A stretch of 43,718 nucleotides of DNA. Origin: Pseudomonadota bacterium. Its GTDB lineage: Bacteria > Myxococcota > JACRCW01 > JAFGSX01. The position numbers and the translations under genes are program-made. The notes under the pieces were generated by a model. That model was not told where the DNA came from, did no database searches, and saw only the letters and a program-made list of their open reading frames with translations. This document shows positions 364-26,299 of this stretch, piece by piece. Where the stretch lies: NCBI GenBank assembly GCA_043821645.1, contig JBDRCO010000138.1, positions 1 through 43,718 on the forward strand, given 5' to 3'. Within the stretch, counting starts at the first letter, position 1. Every line of letters begins with the position of its first letter.

Positions 364-1476
364 TCAGGTCTCCCACAACAGCTCGTAGCTCGCACTGCGC
401 CCCCCACCGGGACGTCGGCGCAGCAATCCCAGCTCCACGAGCTCGGCCAGGTCGCGCTTGGCGGTCTCGCGACTGGTCGAGGTCAGGCCCACATATTTAC
501 GGTTGTTGAGCCCTCCTTCGAAGCCGTCGGGGCCGGCGTCAAGCAGGCGGCCAAGCACCTTGCGCTGCCGCGGATTGAGCTCGAGCTCGGCATGGGTTCG
601 CCAGAAGCTGGCACGCTGCAGGGACAAACGAGCCACGTCGAGCGAGCGCTCGATGGCGCGCTGCTGGCAGCCAAGGAACCACTGCAGCCAGGCCGTGACG
701 TCGACGCTGCCGCGCTGGGTCTGCTCGAGGACCAGGTAATAGGCCTCGCGCTCGTCGTTGATCTGCGCCGACATGCTGTACAGCCGTCGCCCAGAGCGCT
801 CGTCCTGGGCCAGGGCCATGTCCGTGAGGGCGCGCGCGACGCGGCCGTTGCCGTCCTCGAAGGGATGGATGGTCACGAACCACAGGTGCGCCAGGGCGGC
901 GCGCAGCAGGCCGTCGAGTGGTGGGACAGGCGGCGCGTTGAACCAGCGGAGCAAGTCCCTTATCTCCGTCGCCACGCGGCTGGCCGGGGGCGCCTCGTAG
1001 TGCACGCGCTCGCGCCCCGCGGGCCCCGAGACAACCTGCATGGGCTCGGCGCTGTGGCGCCAGCGACCCACGGCGATCGTCTGCAGACCCGAGTAGCCCG
1101 TCGGGAACAGCGCGGCCTGCCAGCCCCAGAGCCGCTTCGCGGTGAGCGGCCTGTCGTGGTGGCCGGTGGCGTCGATGAGCATCTGCACCAGCCCGTCGAC
1201 GTGGCGCGGCACGCGCGGTAGGCCCGCCGTGGGCAAACCCAGCCTCCTGGCGACCGAGGAGCGGATGGCCTGGCGGTCCAGCGTCTCGCCTTCGATGATG
1301 GCCGTGGTCAGGGCTTCCTCGACCAGCGTCTCGGCGTGCTGCTCGAGCCCGAGCTGATCGGCCAGGGACTGCAACCTGCCCTGGCTCTGCCGGGTCTGGC
1401 CGAGCTGCACCAGGAGATCCTGGTCGCGCCAGGTGAACCCGGGCCAGGCGGCCGACTGCCAGATGTAGCGTGCCAT
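364..1476 (-). CDS. Fic family protein (DUF4172 N-terminus, Fic domain, C-terminal HTH)
   Basis: N-terminal YIWQ..WP.F.W, canonical Fic motif HPFEDGNGRVAR, and C-terminal TAKRDLAELV...GGGRSASY winged HTH. Confidence 0.93.
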   Translation of the reverse strand: MARYIWQSAAWPGFTWRDQDLLVQLGQTRQSQGRLQSLADQLGLEQHAETLVEEALTTAIIEGETLDRQAIRSSVARRLGLPTAGLPRVPRHVDGLVQMLIDATGHHDRPLTAKRLWGWQAALFPTGYSGLQTIAVGRWRHSAEPMQVVSGPAGRERVHYEAPPASRVATEIRDLLRWFNAPPVPPLDGLLRAALAHLWFVTIHPFEDGNGRVARALTDMALAQDERSGRRLYSMSAQINDEREAYYLVLEQTQRGSVDVTAWLQWFLGCQQRAIERSLDVARLSLQRASFWRTHAELELNPRQRKVLGRLLDAGPDGFEGGLNNRKYVGLTSTSRETAKRDLAELVELGLLRRRPGGGRSASYELLWET

Positions 1477-1993: not shown

Positions 1994-3486
1994 GTGACCG
2001 GCGCGTGGACCTGGACGCCTTCGCTGTCGGCGAGACCAGCGGTGTGCCGCGGTGGTCGACGCAAACGAAGCCAGCGTCCTCGAGCCTGTGCCTGCAGCGG
2101 TGAGGCGTGGGCCGCGAAGTAGCGGCTCGCGATCAGGTCGAGTGGCAGGGCGCCCGCAACCATGTCTTCGTCTGCGAGCCCCACAGGGTCACCGGGGCAC
2201 CTGCTCGCTCGCTGGGGCGCGCGCCCCCGCTTCGCTGCCATTTTTCCTCGTCAGGCGACGGTGCTTCACTGCTGACGATGGCCGCCGAGCCGGATGCCAA
2301 GCCGGGCATACCCGGGGTGGTCGATGGAGAAACACTTCATGCTTCCTACGGCCTCAAATTGAAAGAGGTTCCCGCAAAACGACCCGACCCCGGAGAGGCG
2401 CCAGGTGTTCGACATTCCCAGGATTCACGCGCAGTGCACCGAGTATCAGACGCACGCGCTGTCCTGCACCTGCGGCGCCCTCACGCGTGCGCTTCTTCCG
2501 CCCGGCGTTCCCAGGGGAGCCTTCGGGCCCAGCTTGATGGCGCTGGTGTGCCTGCTCAGCGGGAAATTTCACTTGAGCAAGCGTGCGCTCAAAGAGTTCT
2601 TGGCCGACGTGCTCGGTACCGAGGTTGCGTTGGGCTCGGTGGCCAACATCGAACAGCAGATGAGCGCGGCGTTGCAGGCCCCGATGGCCGAGGCGCGAGC
2701 CTTCGTGCGCGAGCAACCCGTGGCCAACATGGACGAGACGGGCTGGCGCGAAGGCAACAAGCGGGCGTGGCTGTGGGCGGTGGTGACGCCGCTGGTGACC
2801 GTGTTTCAGGTGGTACGTTCGCGAGCGGCCAAGGTGGCCAAGGAACTCCTGGGCGAGGACTTCGCCGGTCAGGTCGGCTGCGATCGCTGGAAATCCTACG
2901 ACTGAATCCCCGCTCTGCGGCGTCAGCTGTGCTGGGCGCATCTCGTACGCGACTTCACGGCCATGACCGAGCGGGCGGGCTACGGCCGCGTCATCGGCCG
3001 CAAGCTCCTCAAGAAGGTCAAGCGCATGTTTGGGCTGTGGTGGAAGGCCCGCGACGGAACCCTGAGTTGGGCAGAGTTTCAAATGAAAATGCGGGGAATC
3101 GAGGCCGAAGTGGGCAAGCTCTTGCGCCAGGGCTTGACCTGCAACTCGCCCGCGACCGCCGCCACATGCAGGGACATCCTGCGAAACGAACAGGCACTGT
3201 GGACCTTCGTCCGCGTCCAGGGCGTCGAGCCGACCAACAACGCAGCCGAGCGAGCGCTGCGGCCCGCGGTGCTGTGGCGCAAGCAGAGCTTTGGCACGCA
3301 GAGCGGAGCCGGCAGCCGCTTTGCCGAGCGCATACTGGCCACAGTGGCAACCCTGAAAGCTCAGCACCGCCACGTCCTGACCTACCTCACCAGCGCCATC
3401 GATGCCCTCAATCGCGGCGTTCAGGTCGATTCACTCCTGCCACAGGCTCAGGAAATCCATGTGGCTGCGGCTGGGTGAACGGTTAC
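1994..3486 (+). mobile_element. Degenerate IS66-family element (left end uncertain)
   Basis: IS66 TnpC homology. The right end GGGTGAACGGTTAC reverse-complements to GTAACCGTTCAC, an IS66-type GTAA terminus. The left end GTGACCG at 1994 is only a weak match, and no target duplication was seen. Confidence 0.65.
2381..3478 (+). pseudogene. IS66 transposase (TnpC) pseudogene
   Basis: Motifs RRQVFDIP..C.CG, MDETGW...WLW, QLCWAHLVRDF and VEPTNNAAERALRPAVLWRK. An in-frame TGA at 2903-2905 splits two same-frame ORFs (2405-2905 and 2963-3478), and the N-terminus is frameshifted. Confidence 0.88.
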
Positions 3487-3923
3487 GATATCAGGACATC
3501 GCGATAGCCCGGGCGTGGTCGGGCTGTGCTGGACGGGGCAGGTTGCTTTTTCGCTGGCAACCATTCTGAGGAGAGAGTCTGGATCGCACTTCGGGTTTCG
3601 CCTTCGCCTGGGCACATGGTCTCGCTGCGGCGCAGCTCGAACACCCATGGCGCAGCGCGGTCAAGACGGCTTCGGCGGACCACAACGCGCTTCTTCACAA
3701 ACCACGTAACACTTCTGGATTACTGGATTAACAAGCCCATATCCCGCTCGGTCCGGTCGCGGTTCTCATCCCGGCAGAGACAGCCACCGCGGGGACCGCC
3801 GCACTCCGCGTGGGCAAGAGAATCCGCAATCAGCACGACCTGTTGGGCGAAACCGACATCGGTCAGGTGTACGAGGGACGCGCACCTGGTGGGAGCCGAT
3901 ACCACACGCAGCTGGAGGACATC

Positions 3924-5819
3924 ATGAGTGCAGCCGTCAAGCATCGCGTGGTTCCCGCCGAGGCCGCTCGCGTGCGCAAGGACCTGTCGCTGGTTCGCAG
4001 CTCGGTGAACCGCGGCGACGTGCTGTCCCGCGGCGACCGGGGCGCCGACGTCAAGGCCCTGCAGCGCGAGCTCCACGACGCTGGGGTGTACAGCGGCAAG
4101 CACAGCGGGGTCTTCGACAAGGCCACCGAGCAGGCGGTGCGCAGCTACCAGAAGGCGCGCGGTCTGCGTGCCGACGGCGTGGTTGGCAAGCAGACCCTGG
4201 CCTCGCTCAAGGCCAACAACGTCTTCGTCAAGGATGGCTTCGAGACTGCGGCCGGCCGCGGGCAGTCGGGCCTGGACATCCTGGCCGCGGAGCGGCGCCT
4301 GGCCGCCCTGGGCTACGCCACGGGCGCAGTGGACGGGAAGTTCGACGACAAGACCGCGCAGGCGGTCAAGGCCTTCCGTGCCAGCAACGACGATCTGCCC
4401 GACAACAAGAGCGCGCTCGACAAGGACATGTGGAAGAACCTGCAGCAGACCTACCAAAGCCAGGTGGCGCCGCTGCAGGGCGTGCGGCGGCAGCGGGTGG
4501 TGGGTTCGGTCAAGGAGCACAAGCGGCTGGACGACGCCACGGCGCGTGCGGCTGCGCAGGGCGCACTGAAGCCGGGTGCCAGCGGGCGCAGCGTGCGCAA
4601 CCTGCAAGCCCACCTCAAGGCCGCGGGCGAGAACCCGGGCACGATCAACGCGAGCTACGGCACCCGCACTCGCGATGCGGTCAAGAACTTCCAGGGCAAG
4701 AACGGGCTGCCGGCGACCGGTAAGGTGGACACGAAGACGTGGCAGGCCCTGCGCGATCGCCAGTTCGCGGCGGCCGGCAAGGCCACGCCGGCGCAGAGCG
4801 CGGGCGAACGCGACGCGGCGGTGCTGCACACTGAGCGCCAGCTCAGCACCCTTGGCCTGAACCCAGGCAAGGTCGACGGCTGGTACACCGCGGGCACGGC
4901 GGCCGCGGTGTCACGCTTCCAGACCAAGCACGGCCTGCAGCGCACGGGTCAGGTCGACGGCACCACGCTCAAGGCCCTGGACAAGGCCGTGGCCCTCAAG
5001 GACGTCGAGAGCGACCTGAAGAAGCTGGGCTACAAGCCAGGCGCGGTCGACGGCGTGGCCAGCAGCGAGACGGCCAGCGCCCTGCGCGCGTTCCAGAAGA
5101 AGGAAGGCCTGGCGGTCACCGGCACCGCCACCGCGCAGACCGACGCGCGCCTGGACAAGCGGGTGCAGCAGAAGGAGGCCGCGGCCAAGGTCAACGGCCC
5201 CAAGCCCAAGGGCGAGGCGGCCAAGGCGGCCTGGTACCAGGCCCTGGTCAAGAAGAACGGTGGCAAGTGGCGCACGGGCGTCAACGAGATGAACATCGTC
5301 GGCCTGCGCGGCCAGAGCGTCGACGGCAAGCGCAACGGCAACGCCTTCAACCAGTGGAACGACACCATGGCCTACGTGTGGAAGGGCAGCGACGGCAAGA
5401 TGCACGTGCGCGAGTTCCAGGCCACCACCGACCCGGGCCTCAAGAGCGGCACCGGCCAGGACGCCAACCACGACGGCAGCCTGGACCTGGCCCATTTGCG
5501 GCCTGGCTCCTACCCCTACCGCCTGGGCACGCACCGCGGCCTGTACGGCGCGGGCAACCCCACCTACAACCTGCCGGTGTACCGCGACACCAACCACGAC
5601 GGCCACATCAGCAGCGCCGAGAAGGCTGCCAGCAAGCGCCGCGGCGACACCGGCTCGGGCATCAACATCCACTGGGGCGACGGCTACACCGTGGGCGGGT
5701 TCAGCGCGGGCTGCCAGGTCGTGAAGGGCAGCTACGATTACTTCCGCGGCCACGTGACGCCGCTGCTGCAGCTCAACCGCGGGCAGATGTATTACACGCT
5801 GATCGACCAGTCCAAGTAG
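3924..5819 (+). CDS. Protein with five peptidoglycan-binding domains and a C-terminal putative His/Cys (YkuD/L,D-transpeptidase-like) catalytic domain
   Basis: Repeated L..G..G.DV..LQ..L...G....DG.F...T..AV..FQ...GL..DG units, and a C-terminal GINIHWG...FSAGCQV. GGAGG at 3914-3918 favours the ATG at 3924 over the GTG at 3810. Confidence 0.85.
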   Translation: MSAAVKHRVVPAEAARVRKDLSLVRSSVNRGDVLSRGDRGADVKALQRELHDAGVYSGKHSGVFDKATEQAVRSYQKARGLRADGVVGKQTLASLKANNVFVKDGFETAAGRGQSGLDILAAERRLAALGYATGAVDGKFDDKTAQAVKAFRASNDDLPDNKSALDKDMWKNLQQTYQSQVAPLQGVRRQRVVGSVKEHKRLDDATARAAAQGALKPGASGRSVRNLQAHLKAAGENPGTINASYGTRTRDAVKNFQGKNGLPATGKVDTKTWQALRDRQFAAAGKATPAQSAGERDAAVLHTERQLSTLGLNPGKVDGWYTAGTAAAVSRFQTKHGLQRTGQVDGTTLKALDKAVALKDVESDLKKLGYKPGAVDGVASSETASALRAFQKKEGLAVTGTATAQTDARLDKRVQQKEAAAKVNGPKPKGEAAKAAWYQALVKKNGGKWRTGVNEMNIVGLRGQSVDGKRNGNAFNQWNDTMAYVWKGSDGKMHVREFQATTDPGLKSGTGQDANHDGSLDLAHLRPGSYPYRLGTHRGLYGAGNPTYNLPVYRDTNHDGHISSAEKAASKRRGDTGSGINIHWGDGYTVGGFSAGCQVVKGSYDYFRGHVTPLLQLNRGQMYYTLIDQSK

Positions 5820-5930
5820 CGCATGCGCGACCGTTGCAGGCCCTGCGACACGATGCCATCGAGCGCGGTCGCCGGCGGGCGCAGCGACGGGCGTGCAGTG
5901 CTGCGCCGCGCACCATCCGGGAGAGCTGAG

Positions 5931-7439
5931 ATGCGGAACGACGACCTGCGGATCCTCGTCGGGATCGCCGTCTGGGTGGTCCTGGGAGCCTGTATTCCAG
6001 CGGCCACCGCCACGACGGAGGACGGGAGCGCACCACCTCTCGACGCTGGCGCGCTGGCCGATGCGGCAGCGTTCGACGTCGACGCAGGCGCCGGGCAGGA
6101 GGCCGGGGTTGGCGACAGACTCGCAGCGGACATCGCAACGGCGGACAGCGTCAGCGGTGACAGCGCTGCGGCAGACCACCTGCTGAACGACGCAGGGACG
6201 ACGGACAGTGCCGATGCCCACGTCGGACCGAGCTGCGACGCCGACGCGCTGACCGGCTACTACTGCGCCGGCGACAAGGTGAGCAACGGCGCCACGAGCA
6301 CCCTGTACTTCTGCGAGGGCCCGGGGCTCGCAACCGTCGCCGAGGTCTGCGCCAGCGGCTGTGTGATCGCCCCCGACGGTCAGGATGACCACTGCGCGGC
6401 TGACGCCGCGACCTGCGAGGCCGCCGCCGTCACGGGCTCCTACTGCGCGGGCGACGAGGTCGCGGGTGGTACCGCTGGCACCCTGTACCTCTGCAACGGC
6501 CCCGGCCCGGCCAGCGTGGCCGAGGTCTGTGCCAGCAGCTGCACGGTGGCGCCCGCCGGCCAGGACGATCACTGCGCGCCCGCCGCGGCCACCTGCGATG
6601 CCGACGCGGTGACCGGTTATTACTGCGCTGGCGATAAGGTCACGGGCGGCGACGCCGACACGCTGTACCACTGCAGTGGTCCGGGTGTGGCCACGCTGTC
6701 GCAAGCCTGCGCGCACGGCTGCTTCGTGGCGCCGGCCGGCCAGGACGACTACTGCGCATCCGCTGCGGCCACCTGCGATGGCGACGCGGTGACCGGCTAT
6801 TACTGCGCCGGCGACAAGGTCACGGGCGGCGTGGCCAACACGCTGTATCACTGCAGCGGCCCTGGACCCGCGACCGTCGCCGAGACCTGCTCGAGTAGCT
6901 GCGTGGTCGCGGCGGCCGGCTCGGACGACTACTGCGCGGGCAGCGGCAGCGCGGGCTACAAGCTGCCCTTCGCCTGCGGCACGGCCCGCCGCTGCTCCAA
7001 CGGCAACAACACCTCCAGCCACACCGGCACGGATCTCTATGCCTATGACTTCGCGATGCCGGTCGGCACCTCGGTGCGGGCGATCCGCTCGGGCGTGGTG
7101 CAGCGCGTGCGCATCGTGTCGACGCCCGGCAGCGCCTGCTACGACGGCGGCGGCTCGTCCTGCGCCAACCTGGCCAACACGGTCGAGCTGCGCCACAGCG
7201 ACGGTACCATCGCCCTGTACATGCACATCACGACCAGCTCGGTCTCGACGGGCCAGCACGTGAACCAGGGCCAGGAGGTCGCCAAGTCCGGCAACACGGG
7301 CTGGTCCACGGGGCCGCACCTGCACAACCAGGTGCAGACCAACTGCGGCAGCTGGTGGTGCCAGTCGCTCGAGTTTGACTTTGTCGAAGCCCCCAACCTG
7401 ACCACCGGCATGACCGTGACATCGCAGAACTGTCCCTGA
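5931..7439 (+). CDS. Lipoprotein with four Cys-rich repeats and a C-terminal M23 metallopeptidase
   Basis: Lipobox VLGAC, Asp/Ala-rich linker, and M23 motifs HTGTDLYAYDF, YMH and GNTGWSTGPHLH. Confidence 0.88.
   Translation: MRNDDLRILVGIAVWVVLGACIPAATATTEDGSAPPLDAGALADAAAFDVDAGAGQEAGVGDRLAADIATADSVSGDSAAADHLLNDAGTTDSADAHVGPSCDADALTGYYCAGDKVSNGATSTLYFCEGPGLATVAEVCASGCVIAPDGQDDHCAADAATCEAAAVTGSYCAGDEVAGGTAGTLYLCNGPGPASVAEVCASSCTVAPAGQDDHCAPAAATCDADAVTGYYCAGDKVTGGDADTLYHCSGPGVATLSQACAHGCFVAPAGQDDYCASAAATCDGDAVTGYYCAGDKVTGGVANTLYHCSGPGPATVAETCSSSCVVAAAGSDDYCAGSGSAGYKLPFACGTARRCSNGNNTSSHTGTDLYAYDFAMPVGTSVRAIRSGVVQRVRIVSTPGSACYDGGGSSCANLANTVELRHSDGTIALYMHITTSSVSTGQHVNQGQEVAKSGNTGWSTGPHLHNQVQTNCGSWWCQSLEFDFVEAPNLTTGMTVTSQNCP
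6234..6953 (+). repeat. Four tandem 180-bp (60-aa) coding repeats
   Basis: Units start at 6234, 6414, 6594 and 6774. Consensus CD.DAVTGYYCAGDKV.GG...TLY.C.GPG.A.VAE.C...C.VAP.GQDD.C, six Cys per unit. Confidence 0.9.
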
Positions 7440-7544
7440 GCGGTTGGTGCTGGGTGGCACCCGTTTGGGTCACTAGCAGCAGTGGGCCACGGCGTGCGAT
7501 ACTGGGGCGGTCGCTGATGGGGCATGCGAGAAAAGGGGACGTAC

Positions 7545-8417
7545 ATGCCGATAGACCCCCTCCCTTCGACCTTTAGAACGAGCTATCAGCCTGTCGTCAC
7601 CAGAACTCAGCCGGCGCCCAGTGTCGAGACCGTCCCTGCGGGCGACATCGAGACGCTGCGCGCGTTGCACTCCGGTGGCAGCGTCGAGGACGACCTGGCG
7701 CGCCACAACCGGACCACGGCTGCCGCGTCGACCGGAAAGAGCGCGGCGACGACCGCTCCGCCGGATCCCCGGATCGCACCCGCGGGCACACCCGCGCACC
7801 GCGTCTTCGCCACCGATGACGTGCGCCGCATGCAGCCCCGAACCCACGACCTCAATGCGAGTCAGATCGAGGACATCCTCAAGAAGGAGGCGCCCAAGGG
7901 CAGCCCGCTGCGCGTCCCCAAGACGCGCAGGGAAGTCGCCGATGCCCTGGTTCGCGTGTCCGAGAAGGAGGGCGTGCCGGCGTGGCTGATGCTGACACAC
8001 ATGAAGCTCGAGAACGGCTTTGGGAACCCGAAGGACGCCACCATGCAGCCCAACAGGCCGTGGTATTCGACCGACCACGGCCATGGCGGGACGGCCAACC
8101 CGTCGCGGCGCACCGGCGAGAAAGGCCAGAGCCACAACCTCTTTGGCCTGACGCCGCCCAGGGGCTACCAGGGCAACTACATCGTGTCGCGCGACATGCC
8201 CCAGGGCTTGCGGGTGTTCGACAGCTTCGGGCAGAGCATCGAGACCGAGGGCGCGACGCTGTCGAAGCACTACCGCGGCCTGTCGGTCAACGACTACATC
8301 GACAAGTACTACATCGGCGATCAGCGGGATAACCAGAAGAACGGGATCATCAGCACGGCAAGGCGCTGGGGCCAACTCTCCATCGATCGCAACTCGGTGC
8401 TCCTTCCCGAGCGGTAG
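7545..8417 (+). CDS. Hypothetical protein with a probable lysozyme-fold (GH73 glucosaminidase-like) domain
   Basis: LMLTHMKLENGFG...HNLFGL...RVFDSFGQSIE....LSKHY parallels the GH73 pattern AQA.LESGWG...NNLFGI...F.S.EESI....L...Y. The N-terminus is Pro/Thr-rich and disordered. An alternative start lies at 7524. Confidence 0.65.
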   Translation: MPIDPLPSTFRTSYQPVVTRTQPAPSVETVPAGDIETLRALHSGGSVEDDLARHNRTTAAASTGKSAATTAPPDPRIAPAGTPAHRVFATDDVRRMQPRTHDLNASQIEDILKKEAPKGSPLRVPKTRREVADALVRVSEKEGVPAWLMLTHMKLENGFGNPKDATMQPNRPWYSTDHGHGGTANPSRRTGEKGQSHNLFGLTPPRGYQGNYIVSRDMPQGLRVFDSFGQSIETEGATLSKHYRGLSVNDYIDKYYIGDQRDNQKNGIISTARRWGQLSIDRNSVLLPER

Positions 8418-8862
8418 CGAGCACACGACGCTGGACCGTCGGCGATGGCGACGAGGGACGTGCGAAGAGCCCCCGATGGCTCAGGGACTTCGCTCCCTGA
8501 CGATCCGCGAAGTGCATTGTTGGAAACGCCATGGGGGCCAAGGGTGGTGGGCTCTGTCGGTCCTGTTTTTGCGAGCTCTGTTCCAGGGGCTGGTCGTAAC
8601 GATCCTCGACCTCCTCGATCAGGCGTTCGAGGCCGATGTCACGGCCCACCTTGAAGCCCGGCCTGCAGCGCTCACGTCCGGCGTCCCTGCCAGTGCATGG
8701 ACCGTGCGTCACGAGGGTTGGTACTCCAATCTTCACCGCCTTCTCTCATTCGACATTCACGGCGCCCGTGCGAAGTGAGGAATATCATGACGGCGACGGC
8801 AGCAAGACCACTGAGATGCGACACAGCGCCAACGCGGGCCTGACGAAGGACGAAAAAGAAAG

Positions 8863-9330
8863 ATGATCACAATCAGCCCGATCGGTACGGTGCGAAGCAC
8901 AAGAAAAGAAAAGAGAGACGACGACTGGAGTCGAGTCGATTCGCACATCGAGCTTGTCGAGAGCCTGCCTGCTGAAACTCTTTCAGGTCTGCAGGACTTC
9001 TCGCATCTTGAAATAGTTTTCTATTTTCATCAGGTCGATGAAAAAGATATCTGTCTCGCCGCGAGGCACCCTCGTGGTAACGCAGAATTTCCTATAGTCG
9101 GCATCTTTGCTCAGCGAGCGAAGGACCGGCCAAACAGGCTCGGGACAACGATTGTACGATTGAAGTCCATCGCGGGACGTAGGATCTACGTCGCTGGGCT
9201 CGACGCGATCGACGGCAGCCCGGTGCTGGACATCAAACCTGTGGTTCGAGAATTTCTCCCCGGCGGCGCGATCGAACAGCCCGAGTGGGTCTCGGTGGTG
9301 ATGAAGGACTATTGGGAGTTAGCGGTCTGA
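8863..9330 (+). CDS. TsaA/TrmO (YaeB)-like SAM-binding protein, short form
   Basis: PIGTV, L.GL.DFSHL..VFYFH, GIFAQRAKDRPNRLG and GLDAIDGSPVLDIKP motifs. Confidence 0.9.
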   Translation: MITISPIGTVRSTRKEKRDDDWSRVDSHIELVESLPAETLSGLQDFSHLEIVFYFHQVDEKDICLAARHPRGNAEFPIVGIFAQRAKDRPNRLGTTIVRLKSIAGRRIYVAGLDAIDGSPVLDIKPVVREFLPGGAIEQPEWVSVVMKDYWELAV

Positions 9331-9489
9331 CGATGCACGGTGGCGCCTTGGCATCGAGCGGAGAGGGCGATCATCTCTCCAAGACAATCTGGGCTCAACT
9401 TCCGTTGCAGTGGCTATACTCGCCGAGTTCAGGTCGGCCCATCATTGGCGTGGACGCGGCGCCAGCTCGACCTGGGGTGGAGGCCGGAC

Positions 9490-9816
9490 ATGTGGTTCGA
9501 ATGTGATTGTGGAAGAGAGATCAAGGACAATGGGGACGGACTCTCCTACAAGGCTCGCTGGATCGCGGATGAGGACTGGTGCTCATTCTGGGATGCCATT
9601 GACGACGCGGTCGAGAAGAGTGGGCCGACGCCCCGAGAGAAGACCCGCGCGTGTCTGGGCTTGCGGAAGAAGTTCCTCTTCAAGGCGCTCTACCAGTGTC
9701 CCGATTGTGGGCGTGTCCATGTGGATGGCGACGAAGATGACGTTCTGACTTTTGAACCTGACGATGAGAACGACAAGAAGCATATTCTCTCCCGCACAAG
9801 GCGCGACGAGGACTAG
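9490..9816 (+). CDS. Small hypothetical protein with Zn-ribbon-like Cys pairs
   Basis: GGAGG RBS before the ATG at 9490; CDCG at the N-terminus and CPDCGR near the C-terminus. Confidence 0.7.
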   Translation: MWFECDCGREIKDNGDGLSYKARWIADEDWCSFWDAIDDAVEKSGPTPREKTRACLGLRKKFLFKALYQCPDCGRVHVDGDEDDVLTFEPDDENDKKHILSRTRRDED

Positions 9817-9970
9817 CTTCTTCCAGGTATTCGCAGGCCTTGAAAGTGGGCGGGCTCGTTTCGCTCCTGGCGCCATGTTTCCCGGCTCGGCTTTGTTCGT
9901 CGTTCACACAGGCGTCAAGGACCCGTGCCACGAACACGTTCCTCGACACGAGAGGCTGCGGACCCGGGAT

Positions 9971-11296
9971 TCAGAGGGGTAGCGAAAAATCGCGAACCAC
10001 GGCCATGTGCTGCATGTTGAGCGCAGCGCTATCCGTGGCCAGCACGGGCGGTACGTCGGTCAGTGGCGCGTACACACGACTGTCAAAGACCAACCCATTG
10101 GGGAAGAGCTGGGTCCCCACCCGCACCGGAATGGACAGAGCATGGAGGTCAGGATCCGGCATGACCTGGTCATAGGGCTGACGGATGCTGGTCGGTAAAA
10201 GACGGTTGGCGCTTGTGCCGGTGTTGCCCGTGCCGTCATCAGGCAGAGGCAGTGTGACCAGGATGGTGGCAAAGGAGGCCAGCGCCGGCTCCCGTGTGGT
10301 ATCCGCGTAGTAGGTGTTGAGGTCGCCGCCGACGACGAGGAGGTCCGCCAGCGGTACGGTGCTGTTGAGGTGCCCCACCAGTTCATCCGCCTCTGTTTTT
10401 CGCTGCGCGACGGCTGCGGCGTTGCTGCTCGCCTTGAGGTGGACGCTCACCGCCCACAGGTCCTTGTTGCCGGGGACGTCCATGCGCGCCCAGACATAAC
10501 TGCGGTTGGTGATGGGTGACGTGTCTGGCCACACACCACTGGCAACGATGGGAAAACGGCTGATGATGCCATTGGGAATGATGCCTGCCCCCGCCGGTTC
10601 GCGCGTGTAGACGCAGGTGACCCCGCATGCTGTCTCGACAAAGGCCTGCACCGCGGCCGGGGAGTTGTCGCCGATGTTGAACTCCTGGATGAGCACGATG
10701 TCCGGGTGCAAGCCCTGGATGATGCGCAGCCCTTCGCCGTTGTCATAGGACTGGTTCAGGCCGCTGCTGAGATTGGCGGCCAGGATGCGCACGGTCTGGG
10801 TTGGACCTGCATCCTCTGCCGGGGACGCGTCCTCCACGCCGGCGTCGAGGTTCGCAACGTCGGAGAATGGGGAGGCATCGGTGAGCGCATTGGCATCTTG
10901 CAGGTCGGCGACGTCCTGTTCGGCAGCGTCCGAAGCGTCCGCAGCGTCGGAGGTCGGGGACGCATCCAGCAGCAGATCCGCGTCCGGTGGCGCTTGACCG
11001 TCCCGCTCGACGTCGGCATCCAGCAAATCCATATCCGTCGGGGATGAATCCGCGGGCGTTGAGACGTCCGGTGGCGCCGCGGCATCCACGTGTCCCGTGT
11101 CCTGCGGCAGCACCGCGTCCTGGGGGAAGGAAGAGGAATCCGGGACGGCGGCGTCTGCCACATCCAGCGTGAAGGCGTCCACATGGCTGATGGTGGCGTC
11201 CAGGGGAGTGTGCGAGGCGTCCGTGTCTCCGGCGGGGGCTGTGATACACGCCGACACTGTCAGGGCACACGCCAGCACGCTGTACCGTATTGCCAT
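9971..11296 (-). CDS. Endonuclease/exonuclease/phosphatase (EEP) family lipoprotein
   Basis: Lipobox-like VSAC, long Asp/Ala linker, and EEP motifs AANL, PDIVLIQEF, SVHLK, GGDLN, YD and QH.AV. Confidence 0.88.
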   Translation of the reverse strand: MAIRYSVLACALTVSACITAPAGDTDASHTPLDATISHVDAFTLDVADAAVPDSSSFPQDAVLPQDTGHVDAAAPPDVSTPADSSPTDMDLLDADVERDGQAPPDADLLLDASPTSDAADASDAAEQDVADLQDANALTDASPFSDVANLDAGVEDASPAEDAGPTQTVRILAANLSSGLNQSYDNGEGLRIIQGLHPDIVLIQEFNIGDNSPAAVQAFVETACGVTCVYTREPAGAGIIPNGIISRFPIVASGVWPDTSPITNRSYVWARMDVPGNKDLWAVSVHLKASSNAAAVAQRKTEADELVGHLNSTVPLADLLVVGGDLNTYYADTTREPALASFATILVTLPLPDDGTGNTGTSANRLLPTSIRQPYDQVMPDPDLHALSIPVRVGTQLFPNGLVFDSRVYAPLTDVPPVLATDSAALNMQHMAVVRDFSLPL

Positions 11297-11463
11297 GGTC
11301 TTGACGCTAGCACAGCCAGAGCCTGCCTGCCGCCGGGATTCCCGCCTGTAGCTGGACCCCGCAGCCCCCCAAAGCCGACCTGCTCCCAGCATTTCTGGTG
11401 GCCAATTCGAGGTCCCGGCGAATAAGGTGAATGCAAGAACAGGAATCCGACAAGGGAGCCGCG

Positions 11464-12378
11464 ATGACCAACATCAAGAAGCCCGCATTCCAGGTGACAC
11501 CGCAGAAGCTCGAGAAGGCCCTGGAGGGTTTTGAAAAGGACCTGCAAGAGGTCAAGACCACGGGCGGCACGGTGAGCATGAACAAGCTCGCGAACGCGGT
11601 GGATGGTCCGGTCGAGCACAGCGCCTACAACACCCTGGTCGACGAGTTCACCCACGATGTTCAGCACCGCGCCAGCGGCTGTAGCGGTGCCTACACCAGC
11701 ACCGAGACGCCGGAGCGTCTGGGCAAAGGGGACGTCGACAAGGTCTTTGACGCCCTGCTCAAGGCCAAGGCCAAGACGGGCAAGATCGACAAGAACAACG
11801 ATGGTGTCATCAGCCTCGACGAGGCCAAGGCGGTGTCGTCGCGCGGTGGCCTGGCAGGCAAGCTCCTCAAGGCCTCGGTGGGCAGCGAGGTCGAGCGCTA
11901 CGAGCATGATCTCCAGCGCTGGGTGTACTCGCTCAACAGCGTCACCGTTTCGATCAAGCAGCGCGTCGAGGCCGACGACGAGATTCGCTCGGTGACGGGT
12001 TTCCACGCCAAGTCCAAGCTGGGCGCCGAGGCCCTGGCCTGGGCCTTTCGCGACCTGACCACGGATCCGGACTCCGGTCTCAGCCACGTCGACATGGATC
12101 GCGTGCTGACCCAGGGCGAGGGCAGCGAGATGCCGCTGGTGGTCCTGGCGCGTGGCTATGCGGCGCGGGCGAGCAAGGGGCATCTGGACAACGACGAGAT
12201 CAAGGCCCTGCTGGCGACGGACGATCTGCAAGGCTACGTCGACACCACCCGGACCAAGGTCGAGGCGCGCCTGGGCGGGGACTTCTTCGACTCCTATCTC
12301 AAGGGCACGGACCTGCCCAATTCTGACCAGCTCAACGATCCCGACTACAAGGCCTGGGCTAGCGACAACCGGTGCTAG
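11464..12378 (+). CDS. Hypothetical protein with an EF-hand-like loop; overlaps the downstream radical SAM gene
   Basis: Strong GC3 codon bias, AAGGGAG RBS, DKNNDGVISLDE loop; the protein ends in KAWASDNRC. Confidence 0.8.
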   Translation: MTNIKKPAFQVTPQKLEKALEGFEKDLQEVKTTGGTVSMNKLANAVDGPVEHSAYNTLVDEFTHDVQHRASGCSGAYTSTETPERLGKGDVDKVFDALLKAKAKTGKIDKNNDGVISLDEAKAVSSRGGLAGKLLKASVGSEVERYEHDLQRWVYSLNSVTVSIKQRVEADDEIRSVTGFHAKSKLGAEALAWAFRDLTTDPDSGLSHVDMDRVLTQGEGSEMPLVVLARGYAARASKGHLDNDEIKALLATDDLQGYVDTTRTKVEARLGGDFFDSYLKGTDLPNSDQLNDPDYKAWASDNRC

Positions 12379-13685
12379 GACCCGTTTCTTCTGCCCGCGA
12401 TCTGCTGCGGGCCGAGGCCTTTGGCGGCATTCATTACTGCCACCACAGCGGCCAGACCACGATGCTGCCGCCAGGTCTGTTTGGCCTGCTGCGCGCAGCG
12501 CGATCGAACAGCGCGCTGGATCACTATGCGGCGAATCCCGGCACGTTCCCCCACGGCGATCGCGCCTTTGCCCGGTCGGTCGCAGGCTGGCAGCGGCAGG
12601 GACTGCTCGACGAGGACTACCGCTGCCCGGCGCGCCTGATCGAAAACCCACCGCTGGCCAGCGGTCTGACGGCACCCCTGACGCTGCACCTGGACCTGAC
12701 CAGCGCCTGCAACCTGCACTGCGTGCACTGCTACGTCGGCGACACCCGCGTACATCATGATCTGTCCGCGGAGCGGGTGCGCAGGGTCTTTGCCGAGCTC
12801 GAGCACAGCGGTGTGCCGGTGCTCGTGCTGAGCGGCGGCGAGCCCCTGGTCCGACCGGACCTGTTCGAGATCCTGCAGGGCCTGTCGCAGCATCCCGTGG
12901 ACGCCTACCTGTGCACCAACGCCACCCTGATCGACGGGGCAACGGCCGCGCGCCTGGTCGCCACCTCGGTACGCGGCTATTCGGTCTCGCTCGATGGCCC
13001 GGATGCTGCCAGCCACGACCGCGTCCGCGGCCCGGGGAGCTTTGACAGCGCACTGGCGGGCCTGCGCGCGCTGGTCTGTGCCGGCGCTCGCTATGTCCAG
13101 CTGCGCGTGACCGCGACGCGGCCCATCGTCGACCGCCTGCTGGAGTTTGCCCCCCTGGCTGCTGAGCTGGGCATCTCGCGGGTGGTGATCAAGCCGCTGA
13201 ATCTGGTCGGGCGGGCGCTCAAGGTGCCCGAGCTGGCCCTGGATCGAGAGGCCTATCTGGCAGCGATCCCGAGGACCCTGGCGCACTGGCCAGCGGCGGC
13301 CTGCATCCTGGAAATGGGCGACGGGATACCGCACCGACCGCCGGACTGGACCCGCATCGCGCGGCCTTTTTCCTGCCCCGGGGGCACCACCACCGCGCGC
13401 GTGTCCTGGGACGCCCGGGTCCTGGCCTGCTCGCAGCGCAGCGACGACGACTGGTCGCTCGCAGACCACGATGTGATGGACTGCTGGCGGAACAGCCCCG
13501 GGCTCGTTCGATGGCGCAACCTGGAACCCGGGCCGGGCTGTCAGCGCTGCGCGAGCCTGGCCTCCTGCGGCGGTGGCTGCCGGATGCGCGCCCTGGCGAC
13601 GGGGGGCGGACTGGGCGATGCCGATCCCTGGATGCCCTGCGCACAGGACAGGCACGGGCCCGCGGTGCCAGACGCGAGCCGTTGA
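12372..13685 (+). CDS. Radical SAM/SPASM-domain protein (PqqE/MftC-like) with a probable N-terminal RRE
   Basis: CNLHCVHC, SGGEP, TNAT and VSLDG motifs. SPASM Cys pattern C.GG..ARV..D..V.AC...CQRC.....CGGGC. The N-terminal LRAEAFGGIHY resembles MftB/PqqD. Confidence 0.9.
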   Translation: MLGPVSSARDLLRAEAFGGIHYCHHSGQTTMLPPGLFGLLRAARSNSALDHYAANPGTFPHGDRAFARSVAGWQRQGLLDEDYRCPARLIENPPLASGLTAPLTLHLDLTSACNLHCVHCYVGDTRVHHDLSAERVRRVFAELEHSGVPVLVLSGGEPLVRPDLFEILQGLSQHPVDAYLCTNATLIDGATAARLVATSVRGYSVSLDGPDAASHDRVRGPGSFDSALAGLRALVCAGARYVQLRVTATRPIVDRLLEFAPLAAELGISRVVIKPLNLVGRALKVPELALDREAYLAAIPRTLAHWPAAACILEMGDGIPHRPPDWTRIARPFSCPGGTTTARVSWDARVLACSQRSDDDWSLADHDVMDCWRNSPGLVRWRNLEPGPGCQRCASLASCGGGCRMRALATGGGLGDADPWMPCAQDRHGPAVPDASR

Positions 13686-13757
13686 GCCTGCTTCACGGAC
13701 GGCCCGGGGGTTCGCTCGTGACTTTGCTCCGGCACGAGTCCTGACTAACCTTGGGCG

Positions 13758-14477
13758 ATGGCACAGCAGAAAAGAGTTCTATCCCGCGCCGTGCTCCCAA
13801 TGCTCGGTGCCCTGGTGTGGATCCTGTTCCCCATCGGATGTCTCTGGTCCGGCGGCGACCTCGACGCCGGTGGCACCGTGGATGCCGGCGTGCTCGACGC
13901 CAGCGCTCCTCTCGAGCCTGCGCCCGGCGAGCTTGGTGGGGTCTGCGCTGGTGGGGATAGCTGCGTTGCCGGGACTTGCACGACGCTCCCGGACGACCGA
14001 GGTGGCCGCTGTACGCAGGCCTGTCTCGAGAACGCCGAGTGTCCGGACCACCTGCGCTGCGAGGCGGTGAGCGACGACCAGATGTTCTGCCTGGCCGGAC
14101 CGCGAGGCAGCGGCGGCATCGGAGACCCCTGCGGCGAGGGCCAGGGACTCGGCTGCGCAAGTGGGCTGTGCATCAGCGCCGATCCCCAGCAGGCGATCCC
14201 CGTCGACACTTGCACGGCCTCCTGCCTCTCCGACCCCGGCTGCGCGGCGCCCTTTCCTGCCTGCAACACCTTCCTCGCGCTGTGTCTGCCCATTGGCTCG
14301 GGCGAGACCGGTGGGCTGTGCCGCTTCGACGGCAGCTGCTTCGACAACAACGTCTGCGTGGATCTCAGTGGCATCGGTGAGCGCTGCACCAGGACCTGCG
14401 CCACGGCATCAGACTGCACAGCGAGCTACCTCGACTGCCGCGAGATCGCAGGTACGGACTACTGCGTCATGCCCTGA
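13758..14477 (+). CDS. Cys-rich secreted or lipoprotein, hypothetical
   Basis: Signal-like N-terminus (FPIGC) followed by repeated G..C....C....C...CT..C....C modules. Confidence 0.75.
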   Translation: MAQQKRVLSRAVLPMLGALVWILFPIGCLWSGGDLDAGGTVDAGVLDASAPLEPAPGELGGVCAGGDSCVAGTCTTLPDDRGGRCTQACLENAECPDHLRCEAVSDDQMFCLAGPRGSGGIGDPCGEGQGLGCASGLCISADPQQAIPVDTCTASCLSDPGCAAPFPACNTFLALCLPIGSGETGGLCRFDGSCFDNNVCVDLSGIGERCTRTCATASDCTASYLDCREIAGTDYCVMP

Positions 14478-21610: not shown

Positions 21611-21686
21611 CGTTACGTTCTTCTTTCGAGCCTCAGCTGGCCTGGCATGGCCAGTGCTCTGTGCTTCGCAGCACAGAGGTACCCCG

Positions 21687-21995
21687 ATGCCAGAAGAAGT
21701 CGAGAACCTGAAGACCAGCCAGAGCCGAGCCATGCTGGCCGCGGACATGCTTCGCGCCATCGCCCACCCGTCGCGGCTCCGAATCCTGGCCTTGCTGTGC
21801 GAGCGCGAGGAACACGTGAGTGCCCTGGCCGAGCTACTGGGCCTCAAGCAGGCCATCATCTCGCAGCAATTGCGCATCCTGCGCTCGCAGCGCCTGGTCG
21901 AGGTCAAGCGCGAGAACGGCTTCTCGTACTACGGGCTGGCGGAGCCGCGGCTCAAGGAGTTCATCCGCTGCGTCGAGGGCTGCACGGGGCACTGA
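21687..21995 (+). CDS. ArsR/SmtB family regulator, likely (per)sulfide-responsive
   Basis: LRAIAHPSRLRIL..LC, ISQQLRILR...LV...R....YY and a C-terminal CVEGC; heads a sulfur-metabolism operon. Confidence 0.9.
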   Translation: MPEEVENLKTSQSRAMLAADMLRAIAHPSRLRILALLCEREEHVSALAELLGLKQAIISQQLRILRSQRLVEVKRENGFSYYGLAEPRLKEFIRCVEGCTGH

Positions 21996-22033
21996 GGGTC
22001 AGACCTCCGACGCCAGACACGAGCGAGAGAACC

Positions 22034-24262
22034 ATGCTGACCCGACGAGAGCTGTTCAAGTCTTCTGCGGTCCTGGCGACGGCGGGCCTGGCCACGGCGC
22101 AGGCTGGTCCTGCGCGGGCCTTCGGTCTGCTGCACACGCCCGAGGCCCTGCCGGCCGAGCGCGAGGTCCCCTCGGTGTGCGAGGTCTGCTTCTGGAACTG
22201 CGGCCTGATCGCGCAGGTGCGTGGCAACCGCGTGCTCGAGGTGCGGGGCCACCCGGACTACCCCAACGCCCGGGGCAAGCTGTGTGGGCGGGGCAACGCC
22301 GGACCCGGCTTCGTACGCGACAGCGATCGCCTCAAGTATCCACTGCGTCGCGTCGGCGAGCGTGGCGAGGCGCGCTTCGAGCGCATCGGCTGGAGCACCG
22401 CCTACGCACTGATCGCGGAGGGCTTCAACCGCATCAAGGAGCAACACGGGCCCGAGGCGCTGGCCCTGTTCTACCACGGCAAGGGCGGCCCCATGCTGCG
22501 CACCATGATGGCGGCGCTGGGCACACCCAACTTCGCTGCTCCGGCCTACGCCCAGTGCAAGGGGCCGCGCGACGTGGGCTACAAGCTGACCTTTGGCGAG
22601 ACCCTGTCCTCGCCCGAACCGCTCGACTTCGAGAACACGCGCTGCATGGTTCTGTTCGGCTCCCACCTCGGCGAGAATGCGCACAACAGCCAGGTGCAGG
22701 ATTTCGTCGCGGCGCGAGCGCGCGGGGCCAGGCTGATCGTGCTGGATCCGCGCATGAGCACCGCGGCCTCCAAGGCCGATGTCTGGATGCCGGTGCACCC
22801 GGGATCGGACACCGCGGTGATCCTGGCCTGGCTACACCTGCTCATCGCTCGTGAGCAGGTCGACCGGGTGTTTGTTGACACGCAGTGCCTGGGCTTCGAG
22901 CAGCTGGCCGAGCATGTGAAGCCCTTCACTCCGGAGTGGGCGGCCGAGCAGGCGAAGGTGCCCGCGGCCGAGATCGAGCGCGCCTACCAGCTCATCGTCG
23001 AGGCCAGGCCCGCGGTGCTGGTTCACCCTGGCCGCCACGTCACCTGGTACGGCGAGGCCGATACCCAGCGCGCCCGCGCCCAGGCCATCCTCAACGCGCT
23101 GCTGGGATCCTTCTGGCGTGAGGGCGGGACCTTTCGACCCTCGAGTGTGGAACTCGCCGACTTTCCGGGTCCGGATTTCCCCGAGACCAAGCCGGACGTC
23201 GACAGGGCAGCGGGCCGCTATCCCTTTGCCAAGGAGGTGTCGACGACGGGGATCCGTGACACCACGCGCTCGGGCGCGCCTTACCCCATCAAGGGCTGGT
23301 ACGTGCACGCGACCAACCTGATGCAGTGCATGCCCAACGTGCAGCACACCATCGAAGCCATACGCCAGCTTGACATGCTGGTGGTGTGCGACGTCATGCC
23401 GTCGGAGATCACGGCCTGGGCCGACGTGGTGCTGCCCGAGGACACCTACCTGGAGCGCTACGACGACCTGGCCGTGGGCGTGGGCAAGCGACCCTACATC
23501 GGCTTGCGGCAGCCCGTCGTCCAGTCCCCGTACGACACGCGGCCGGCCTGGCGCATGGCCAAGGAGCTGGGGACCGCGCTCGGCGTGGGGGACTTCTTCG
23601 CCTTCGACAGCATCGAGGAGTACCTGGGGGCACGGCTGCAGGGTTCGGGCACGACCCTCGATGAGCTCAAGAGCAAGGGGATTCACTTCGTCGATGCCAA
23701 GAACGCGCCCTACCTGGAACCCGATGCCGAGTTTCACTGGCACACGCCCTCGGGCAAGGTCGAGCTGTACAGCCAGCAGCTCGCCGACAAGGGCTTCTCG
23801 CCGCTGCCCGTTCACCTGCCTCCGCCAGAGCCGCCGGCGGGAACCATGCGCCTGCTGTACGGTCGCAGCCCGCTGCACACCTTTGGCCGCACCCAGAACA
23901 ACGAGACCCTGTTCGATGTGGACCCCAGCAACTGCGTGTGGGTCAACCCCTGCTGTGCCGAGAAGATGGGGCTGCGCCATGGGCAGGCGGTGATGGTGCA
24001 CAACGCGGACGGCGACGAGACCGGTCCCTTGCCCCTGCGCCTGACCGAGCGCGTGATGAAGGGCACTGCCTACATGGTGCACGGCTTCGGTCACCGCGCC
24101 CGGGGCCTGAGCCGCTCGTGCTGCCAGGGAGGAAGCGATTCCGATGTCATTCGCGCCTACGCGGTGGACCCCATCACCGGGGCCACAGGCATGCGGGTGC
24201 AGTTCGTGACCATCCGGGCCGCGGCACCGGGCGCGAAGGTGAAGCCATGCGCCATGCGATGA
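22034..24262 (+). CDS. psrA: Polysulfide/thiosulfate reductase catalytic molybdopterin subunit (PsrA/PhsA-like)
   Basis: Tat signal TRRELFK, 4Fe-4S motif CEVCFWNC...KLCGRG, DRLKYPL, Cys ligand in AQCKGPR, ADVVLPE.TYLER, H...RTQNN and HGFG. Confidence 0.88.
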   Translation: MLTRRELFKSSAVLATAGLATAQAGPARAFGLLHTPEALPAEREVPSVCEVCFWNCGLIAQVRGNRVLEVRGHPDYPNARGKLCGRGNAGPGFVRDSDRLKYPLRRVGERGEARFERIGWSTAYALIAEGFNRIKEQHGPEALALFYHGKGGPMLRTMMAALGTPNFAAPAYAQCKGPRDVGYKLTFGETLSSPEPLDFENTRCMVLFGSHLGENAHNSQVQDFVAARARGARLIVLDPRMSTAASKADVWMPVHPGSDTAVILAWLHLLIAREQVDRVFVDTQCLGFEQLAEHVKPFTPEWAAEQAKVPAAEIERAYQLIVEARPAVLVHPGRHVTWYGEADTQRARAQAILNALLGSFWREGGTFRPSSVELADFPGPDFPETKPDVDRAAGRYPFAKEVSTTGIRDTTRSGAPYPIKGWYVHATNLMQCMPNVQHTIEAIRQLDMLVVCDVMPSEITAWADVVLPEDTYLERYDDLAVGVGKRPYIGLRQPVVQSPYDTRPAWRMAKELGTALGVGDFFAFDSIEEYLGARLQGSGTTLDELKSKGIHFVDAKNAPYLEPDAEFHWHTPSGKVELYSQQLADKGFSPLPVHLPPPEPPAGTMRLLYGRSPLHTFGRTQNNETLFDVDPSNCVWVNPCCAEKMGLRHGQAVMVHNADGDETGPLPLRLTERVMKGTAYMVHGFGHRARGLSRSCCQGGSDSDVIRAYAVDPITGATGMRVQFVTIRAAAPGAKVKPCAMR

Positions 24263-25737: not shown

Positions 25738-25738
25738 G

Positions 25739-26248
25739 ATGCCCAAGCCGTACTGGAACCCCTACGTCGCCGGGATTGCCCTGGGACTGGTGTTGCTCGC
25801 GAGCTTCGTGGTCACGGGCAAGGGCCTGGGCGCGAGCGGGGCGGTCAAGCACATCGACGCGGCTGTGCTGCACGCGGCCAATCCAACCTGGGCCGAAGAG
25901 AACGCCAACATCAAGGGCTACTTTGCGCCGGACCATGGACCGTTGAGCGACTGGATCGTGTTCCTGGCGCTGGGCGTGGCCATCGGTGGTCTGACTGGCT
26001 CCATCTCGGCCCGCCGCTTCAAGGTCGAGACCGTTCGTGGTCCGCGCATCCAAGGCGATCTGCGCTGGCTGCTGGCCCTGGCCGGGGGCGTGCTCAGTGG
26101 CGTGGCGGCGCAGATCGCACGCGGCTGCACCAGTGGCCAGGCGCTGAGCGGGGGGGCGCAGCTCGCGCTCGGAAGCTGGGTGTTCATGTTCGCGGTGTTC
26201 GGCGGCGCCTACGCAGTCGCCTACTTCGTGCGCAAGGAATGGATCTGA
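25739..26248 (+). CDS. YeeE/YedE-family sulfur-compound transporter (half)
   Basis: YWNPYVAGI.LG, GLGASG and A.GCTSGQALSGG motifs. Confidence 0.88.
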   Translation: MPKPYWNPYVAGIALGLVLLASFVVTGKGLGASGAVKHIDAAVLHAANPTWAEENANIKGYFAPDHGPLSDWIVFLALGVAIGGLTGSISARRFKVETVRGPRIQGDLRWLLALAGGVLSGVAAQIARGCTSGQALSGGAQLALGSWVFMFAVFGGAYAVAYFVRKEWI

Positions 26249-26299
26249 GGCACTGGACAGCGCGCTGGTGACGTCCGCGAGGCATGACGTCCACCCTGG

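Follow-up and report, generated by a model that had tools for sequence, protein, structure and literature searches.

We describe a two-gene unit on a 43,718-nucleotide (nt) stretch of DNA, the window (contig JBDRCO010000138.1 of assembly GCA_043821645.1, a Pseudomonadota bacterium placed by GTDB in the Myxococcota), in which a radical S-adenosylmethionine (SAM) enzyme with an N-terminal RRE (RiPP recognition element; RiPPs are peptides made on ribosomes and modified after translation) and a C-terminal SPASM domain is encoded directly behind a 304-amino-acid (aa) protein of an unnamed family. The reading that we tentatively favour, from sequence comparison and structural models, is that the enzyme post-translationally modifies this partner, which would make the latter the candidate substrate of a RiPP-like system whose target is a whole folded protein. 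This is the most economical reading because the enzyme carries a domain for peptide or protein recognition, no gene other than that of the partner is coupled to it, and the two leave no space between them for a further gene.

The partner gene (gene 1) occupies positions 11464–12378 and the enzyme gene (gene 2; 437 aa) positions 12372–13685, both on the forward strand. The partner frame ends with a Cys codon (12373–12375) and TAG (12376–12378), and because the GTG of the enzyme begins at 12372 (12372–12374) the two genes overlap by 7 nt (GTGCTAG, 12372–12378), as the initial annotation of this DNA had seen. The pair is thus probably one unit, translationally coupled through the overlap. Residues L11, L12, R13, E15, F17, G18 and Y22 at the N-terminus are invariant in the five aligned members of the enzyme family, and GTG 12372 is taken as the start since it is the sole in-frame start codon that retains this motif. 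In the public database the enzyme is recorded as P0003, a 407-aa protein that begins at Met31, a start that looks mis-called because it deletes the first two strands of the RRE (window 12372–12464). For the partner, the Met at 11464 is the one that begins its three closest homologues, each of 304 aa; an alternative start lies at 11431. Both open reading frames (ORFs) appear to be real genes, given that their third-position G+C contents (0.87 and 0.84) resemble those of other genes in the window and that homologues exist elsewhere. The flanking intergenic gaps measure 71 nt (11393–11463) and 72 nt (13686–13757), so an unannotated small precursor gene has no space inside the unit, in agreement with the initial annotation, which had found no small precursor ORF nearby. 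It had also found no protease or transporter: family scans of the surrounding genes detected neither a protease nor a peptide exporter beside the pair, and the nearest transporter is a ZnuA/ABC/ABC-3 set beginning at 16756.

Profile matches and modelling indicate that gene 2 encodes an RRE-radical SAM-SPASM enzyme with an MftC/PqqE-like core that is a member of no named family. The protein scores 73.3 bits against the Pfam Radical_SAM model PF04055 (cut-off 29.5), and its CxxxCxxC cluster motif (C113, C117 and C120; 12708–12731) is invariant in 40 aligned radical SAM proteins. Its C-terminal part scores 30.8 bits against the SPASM model TIGR04085 (cut-off 27). SPASM domains carry a seven-Cys pattern for two auxiliary 4Fe-4S clusters; in this region of the C-terminal third, from C335 to C423 (13374–13640), eight cysteines (C335, C353, C390, C393, C399, C403 and C423 for the pattern, and in addition C371) are invariant in all five family members. 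The CxxxCxxC motif, the SPASM Cys pattern and an LRAEAFGGIHY segment, here located at residues 12–22, had all been pointed out in the initial annotation. The AlphaFold2 model of the enzyme, built from 40 sequences, is confident (pLDDT, the predicted score in the local distance difference test, 89.7; predicted template modelling score, pTM, 0.89).

The initial annotation had proposed a PqqD/MftB-like RRE at the N-terminus of the enzyme and had suggested comparing it with PqqD by AlphaFold; the model bears this fold out for residues 1–95 (12372–12656; the corresponding Pfam families are PF05402 for PqqD and PF26520 for MftB). Three strands (residues 11–15, 18–23 and 28–32) are followed by three helices (34–42, 48–54 and 62–75) in blocks with pLDDT above 90, which is the winged-helix order of an RRE, and the domain is conserved in six family members. 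A structure search of the Atlas with residues 1–100 matched a PqqD cluster (template modelling score, TM, 0.59 by query and 0.68 by matched row), an MftB-chaperone cluster (0.59 by query and 0.54 by matched row) and the N-termini of other radical SAM/SPASM clusters. When the full model was compared with the PDB using Foldseek, SuiB came first (E = 1.6e-19, TM 0.71–0.74, about 450 aligned columns), followed by SkfB, PqqE, CteB and anSME; a sequence profile of the enzyme family likewise aligns residues 10–406 with SuiB residues 28–442. Sequence models respond weakly to the domain: residues 1–100 match no Pfam family even at E ≤ 10, a profile of the N-terminal domain alone gave chance-level matches among PDB sequences (E = 0.11 and 2), and the NCBIfam MftB model matches two of six family N-termini (best E = 0.0079), that of the window enzyme not being among them.

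NCBIfam scans of the whole enzyme returned 71 families, every one below its own cut-off. MftC (TIGR03962) is the best-scoring named family at 144.7 bits (cut-off 265), followed by AhbD (122; cut-off 500) and NirJ (115.7; cut-off 515), while PqqE (TIGR02109) scores 83.2 bits against a cut-off of 381.35. The enzyme also falls below the thresholds for sactipeptide and ranthipeptide maturases (StsB NF045574, 101.5 against 625 bits; PapB NF047865, 52.7 against 340 bits), and its C-terminal 101 residues, scanned alone, match TIGR04463 at E = 0.056 (12.2 bits; cut-off 525). Among the PADLOC defence models, the enzyme has only generic radical SAM core matches to pVip models (residues 106–217) and the partner has no match.

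The partner is predicted to be a cytoplasmic, mainly helical protein. It matches no Pfam family above cut-off and no NCBIfam family at all. Word-indexed searches retrieved close relatives only (P0124, 79% identity; P0125, 73%; P0213, 49%). An exhaustive HMMER search, with a profile made from the first three sequences, reached much further: 87 cluster representatives, mostly about 300 aa long, score at E ≤ 1e-3, with 57 remaining at E ≤ 1e-10 and 30 at E ≤ 1e-30. An alignment of 48 of 90 sequences, short or partial ones being left out, shows M1 and P7 to be invariant and K6 to be present in at least 90% of members. The AlphaFold2 model is highly confident (pLDDT 93.3, pTM 0.82), with a hairpin between strands 64–68 and 77–81, a 50-residue helix at residues 130–181 and a helical tail. 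Foldseek found no match to this model in the PDB at E ≤ 0.001, the best being lanmodulin (E = 0.41, TM 0.16). On this sequence and model evidence, we conclude that the partner is a real protein, predicted to be folded, of an undescribed family.

Residues 109–120 of the partner (11788–11823) form a canonical EF-hand-type loop, a predicted calcium site that is conserved across the family. Pfam EF-hand models (PF00036 and relatives) reach 17–18 bits here, below their cut-offs of 25–30 (residues 118–134 of the 315-aa ORF). Over the 48 aligned members the loop positions are D in 41, N or D in 39, D in 41, G in 37, I, L or V in 48 and a final E in 48. EF-hand fusions are also known from MNIO/bufferin systems; these were judged unrelated, as they are signal-peptide or membrane proteins with EGKCG motifs (PMC12452194) and the partner lacks any NCBIfam match.

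Two further segments of the partner each contain a conserved cysteine. The tip of the hairpin (11665–11691) carries Cys73 (codon 11680–11682) within an [SG]-G-C-G-G motif, where Cys is found in 45 of 48 members, and the C-terminal segment (12304–12375) runs from G-x-D-L through D-P-D-[FY] to the terminal Cys, with G281 in 48/48 and D292, P293 and D294 in 39–41/48. The initial annotation had singled out an internal RASGCSGAY loop and a tail ending in Cys; both are present in the translation, and they prove to hold the only two conserved cysteines of the family, kept or lost together. Among the 50 full-length members, 43 have both cysteines, six have neither, one has the internal Cys only and none has the terminal Cys only (Fisher p = 4e-7, uncorrected for relatedness). 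These 50 are the sequences, of 89, that cover both loop and tail, after three matches of more than 700 aa to repeats only had been dropped, and a terminal Cys was scored as a Cys within the last three residues. Of 23 sequences limited to the N-terminal half, some of them contig-end fragments, 12 also have both cysteines. Shorter relatives (P0186–P0211, about 150–180 aa) consist of the N-terminal half with the loop Cys only, yet end in G/S-C, and in one of them (P0198) an S-A-G-C motif is repeated at the end. The two-cysteine feature thus survives loss of the C-terminal half, since these short relatives keep a loop Cys and a terminal Cys. Such coupling suggests a joint role for the two cysteines, be it in a crosslink, in a disulfide or at a metal site. 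A cyclophane centred on the tail Trp, an idea in line with the cyclophane synthases named in the initial annotation, was set aside: Trp is present in four of five close partners and missing in P0213, which shares its contig size with the enzyme homologue P0005, and a Trp-centred crosslink is therefore unlikely.

We next consider whether the pair recurs. A word-indexed search with the enzyme returned 154 radical SAM relatives, five of which cover 93–95% of the query: the window's own record, P0004 (about 70% identity), P0005 (about 59%), P0006 (58%) and P0007 (49%, from a Planctomycetota metagenome-assembled genome, MAG); beyond these five the score drops from 404 to 165 bits. The enzyme P0004 and the partner P0125 have the same longest contig size (78,377 bp), as do the enzyme P0005 and the partner P0213 (3,770 bp), and as the shorter contig can hold little beyond two genes, P0005 and P0213 would be no more than about 1.6 kb apart. 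From these equal sizes we infer that the pair is present on at least two other contigs. Enzyme subclades show 69% and 72% identity within and 55–57% between; the matching partner subclades show 71–79% within and 49–51% between. Because enzyme and partner identities run in parallel, P0006 and P0126 are a likely fourth pair. Comparison of annotated plasmid contexts with the partner, with the distant family member P0141 and with the N-terminal 100 aa of the enzyme gave no match in any of the three cases.

Outside this clade the picture differs. In a scan of species-representative genomes for radical SAM relatives (at least 78 loci, 16,258 ORFs), a single locus, L001, from a Deltaproteobacteria MAG, was the sole end-to-end match among the matches listed (residues 4–436, 43% identity). 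A hidden Markov model (HMM) of the RRE found only the window and L001 in these ORFs, the third match (E = 0.047) spanning 23 residues. By eye, from the translations, the L001 enzyme is preceded by a 1,776-aa Ser/Thr kinase-NTPase-WD40 protein and followed by an alpha/beta hydrolase; within the locus (4543–11916) the hydrolase start abuts the enzyme stop, and a biotin-ligase-like ORF occupies the other strand. The C-terminus of the kinase/WD40 protein was considered as a look-alike of the partner tail and discarded, being absent from the best 25 of 16,258 ORFs in a search with a tail HMM. Over all of the at least 78 loci, the best tblastn match to the partner had E = 0.75 and the family HMM matched the window itself only. 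We conclude that the enzyme-partner link is established, by these comparisons, for one clade only. The check named in the initial annotation, whether the gene pair is conserved across genomes, therefore comes out positive for the closest relatives (P0004/P0125 and P0005/P0213) and negative at L001; homologues lacking the upstream gene were what that annotation had said would speak against its proposal, and this 43%-identical enzyme is in part such a case.

Several observations converge on the partner as the substrate. The enzyme carries an RRE, a type of domain that acts on behalf of peptide or protein substrates. The partner is its direct upstream neighbour, with the 7-nt overlap and no space for a hidden precursor; the pair recurs, with enzyme and partner diverging in parallel; and the two cysteines of the partner are coupled. 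The core of the enzyme is closest to MftC and PqqE, and protein substrates of RRE-radical SAM-SPASM enzymes have precedent (PMC13692751). Other observations weigh against this reading. The partner does not resemble a RiPP precursor, a short peptide with an unstructured core behind a leader: it is 304 aa long with a pLDDT of 93.3, and its tail is modelled as an ordered helix (293–301, pLDDT about 96, falling to 80 in the last four residues), not a floppy core peptide. No partner gene was found by tblastn and the family HMM in 12.7 kb around the L001 enzyme. Adjacency in other genomes is read from the equal size of longest contigs, and these contigs belong to fairly close relatives (enzymes 55–70% identical), among which gene order may simply have been inherited. 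Finally, the partner family numbers 57 clusters at E ≤ 1e-10 against five full-length enzyme records and L001, in searches that differ in sensitivity; as the partner family looks far larger, most of its two-cysteine members may be without such an enzyme. It is L001 and the unequal sizes of the two families that weaken the substrate reading. Complex prediction with both full-length proteins (alignments A3 and A5) scored 0.00 in both runs, which had no controls, and was counted neither for nor against binding.

These last points are also what would be expected if the true substrate were a peptide or protein encoded elsewhere and the adjacency of the partner were gene order inherited among related genomes: L001 has the same RRE and no partner nearby, the partner family appears much wider than that of the enzyme, and the co-located enzymes come from related lineages. 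We regard this explanation as somewhat unlikely, because it leaves aside the 7-nt overlap of the genes, the retention of the pair across two subclades that are 49–57% identical to each other, and the lack of any candidate precursor next to the enzyme or of space for one. That the partner is instead an accessory of the enzyme, such as a calcium-responsive regulator, scaffold or chaperone, would suit its confident fold and conserved EF-hand loop, and in the CrpABC system a second protein increased the extent of modification (PMC13692751). We judge this role improbable: the enzyme already has its recognition module built in, no conserved third gene offers itself as a substrate, and co-conserved cysteines are less suited to a chaperone than to a metal site or a target of modification.

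A third candidate lies 72 nt downstream of the enzyme on the same strand, where a lipoprotein-like ORF (13758–14477) with a signal peptide and a lipobox, and with no Pfam or NCBIfam family, contains 25 Cys in 239 aa. At 10.5% it passes the 10% Cys criterion that was used to find CrpA (PMC13692751), and by analogy with CrpC/CrpA it could be the substrate. The chance of this seems slim: there is no overlap with the enzyme gene, the corresponding place in L001 is taken by a hydrolase, the window has many Cys-rich secreted proteins (an M23 peptidase at 5823–7439 and a scavenger receptor cysteine-rich, SRCR, protein at 42453–43637), and setting aside the lipobox Cys leaves 24, an even number that fits disulfides. 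Action on a tetrapyrrole or another small molecule, hinted at by AhbD and NirJ being the second- and third-best NCBIfam matches, is very remote, considering how far both scores lie below their cut-offs, the presence of an RRE and the absence of haem-pathway genes from the family scans of the window.

If the partner is indeed the substrate, the RRE would, by analogy with leader recognition, dock a conserved partner terminus, either the C-terminal G-x-D-L...D-P-D-[FY] segment or the N-terminal K-P-x-F stretch, after which the terminal Cys, or a position close to it, would be the target of the radical SAM site. The product might be a thioether staple, perhaps to the other conserved Cys in the hairpin loop, as with QhpD, CrpC and the sacti- and ranthipeptide synthases. 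It might otherwise arise by an MftC-like oxidative decarboxylation of the C-terminal residue of the partner; in the case of MftC it is the last residue of the substrate that is modified. The specific chemistry is a guess by analogy, and we rate it much below the substrate reading. The fullest version, in which the C-terminal Cys of a folded, calcium-binding protein of 300 aa undergoes radical chemistry at the hands of a fused MftB/MftC-like enzyme (a staple to the hairpin-loop Cys or an oxidative decarboxylation) and yields a protein-borne crosslink or cofactor, is in our view unlikely.

On the opposite strand upstream of the pair (9971–11392) lies a secreted protein of the endonuclease/exonuclease/phosphatase family, and beyond the downstream lipoprotein a 489-aa protein without an assigned family precedes the ZnuA/ABC/ABC-3 metal-uptake genes. 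Rfam had no match between 9000 and 16000, and promoter and terminator scans gave nothing above shuffled controls. Elsewhere in the window, a Fic/DUF4172 protein is encoded at 364–1476 (reverse strand). At 2405–3478 (forward) two adjoining ORFs match the first and last parts of an IS66 transposase model and are for this reason a probable broken IS66 copy. In a run of cell-wall-directed genes (3810–8417, forward), one product has five PG_binding_1 repeats, another is an M23 peptidase that carries Cys-rich repeats, and a third is glucosaminidase-like with a sub-threshold match (24.9 bits, cut-off 30.2). The G+C content falls to 0.597 at 8001–10000, compared with 0.65–0.70 elsewhere, in a segment containing a TrmO-like gene (8863–9330) and a 158-aa ORF that has CxxC pairs but matches no family. 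What looks like a gene cluster for the reduction of a sulphur compound (21647–27576, forward) comprises a molybdopterin oxidoreductase and a rhodanese together with a 4Fe-4S dicluster/cytochrome b fusion and two sulphur-transport ORFs of half size. On the reverse strand, a 1,225-aa ORF (29034–32711) joins Ig-like repeats of the Big_7 family to a Dictyostelium-type repeat and has a sub-domain-level match to peptidase M64, and the ORF at 42453–43637 carries an SRCR domain (75.6 bits), a domain best known from animal proteins.

RiPP-type radical SAM enzymes have, to our knowledge, nearly always been studied on short peptides, with few whole-protein cases (QhpC, CrpA and the sulfatases). Should the fullest version above hold, which we consider unlikely, an unrecognised class of enzymatically matured proteins would be represented by the two-cysteine family at large, with its at least 57 clusters. 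The compact pair is directly testable: it has an orphan enzyme that reaches none of the curated family cut-offs, and its candidate substrate combines a confident fold and no significant PDB match with only two cysteines, both conserved and co-inherited. Their coupling points to a shared role that is accessible to mass spectrometry and mutagenesis. Whatever the enzyme does, the partner family had not been named before, with its EF-hand loop, hairpin G-C-G-G motif and C-terminal Cys.

Among known systems, the streptide maturase SuiB (PDB 5v1q/5v1s/5v1t) has the same RRE-radical SAM-SPASM order and gives the best fold match, but it is only 16–17% identical to the enzyme; SuiB acts on a short precursor peptide, whereas the neighbour here is a predicted folded protein of 304 aa. 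MftB/MftC provide the best-scoring family for the core and an MftB-like N-terminus (weak by HMM, TM 0.59 in the Atlas). They differ in that the RRE is here fused and not a separate protein, in that the score lies well below the MftC cut-off, and in that the candidate substrate has 304 aa and ends in Cys; general family scans around the pair named no mycofactocin genes, with no search aimed at mftA, mftD, mftE or mftF. Of the proteins with solved structures, PqqE matches best in sequence (E = 5.5e-25, residues 96–421), and the N-terminal fold is PqqD-like; the PqqE model score nevertheless stays below its cut-off and no pqq genes were seen. Anaerobic sulfatase-maturating enzyme (anSME), a radical SAM/SPASM enzyme that acts on a full-size protein, reaches TM 0.57–0.58 against the enzyme model but lacks a match to its N-terminus, aligns in sequence over residues 110–212 only, and has no counterpart of its sulfatase near the pair.

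The closest precedents in kind are RRE-bearing radical SAM/SPASM enzymes with protein substrates. As described in Dieter et al. 2026 (PMC13692751), the protein QhpC is handled by QhpD through an RRE, and CrpA, a protein of 28.8 kDa and thus about the size of the partner, receives thioethers from CrpC. The initial annotation had held that its proposal would amount to an undescribed system, which as to kind is too strong given these published examples (QhpD/QhpC and CrpC/CrpA; PMC13692751); a text search of the open-access literature, which did not extend to sequences in papers, found no description of this enzyme-partner pair. CrpC belongs to TIGR04463, to which the enzyme has only the weak match in its C-terminal 101 residues; CrpA has ten Cys-rich repeats, in contrast to the two cysteines and confident helical fold of the partner; and the recognition sequences of QhpC and CrpA are N-terminal, whereas here recognition possibly involves the C-terminal segment. 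What sets the present pair apart from these precedents is the enzyme family, the candidate substrate family (predicted to be folded and helical, with an EF-hand loop and only two cysteines, of which one is C-terminal) and perhaps a C-terminal mode of recognition.

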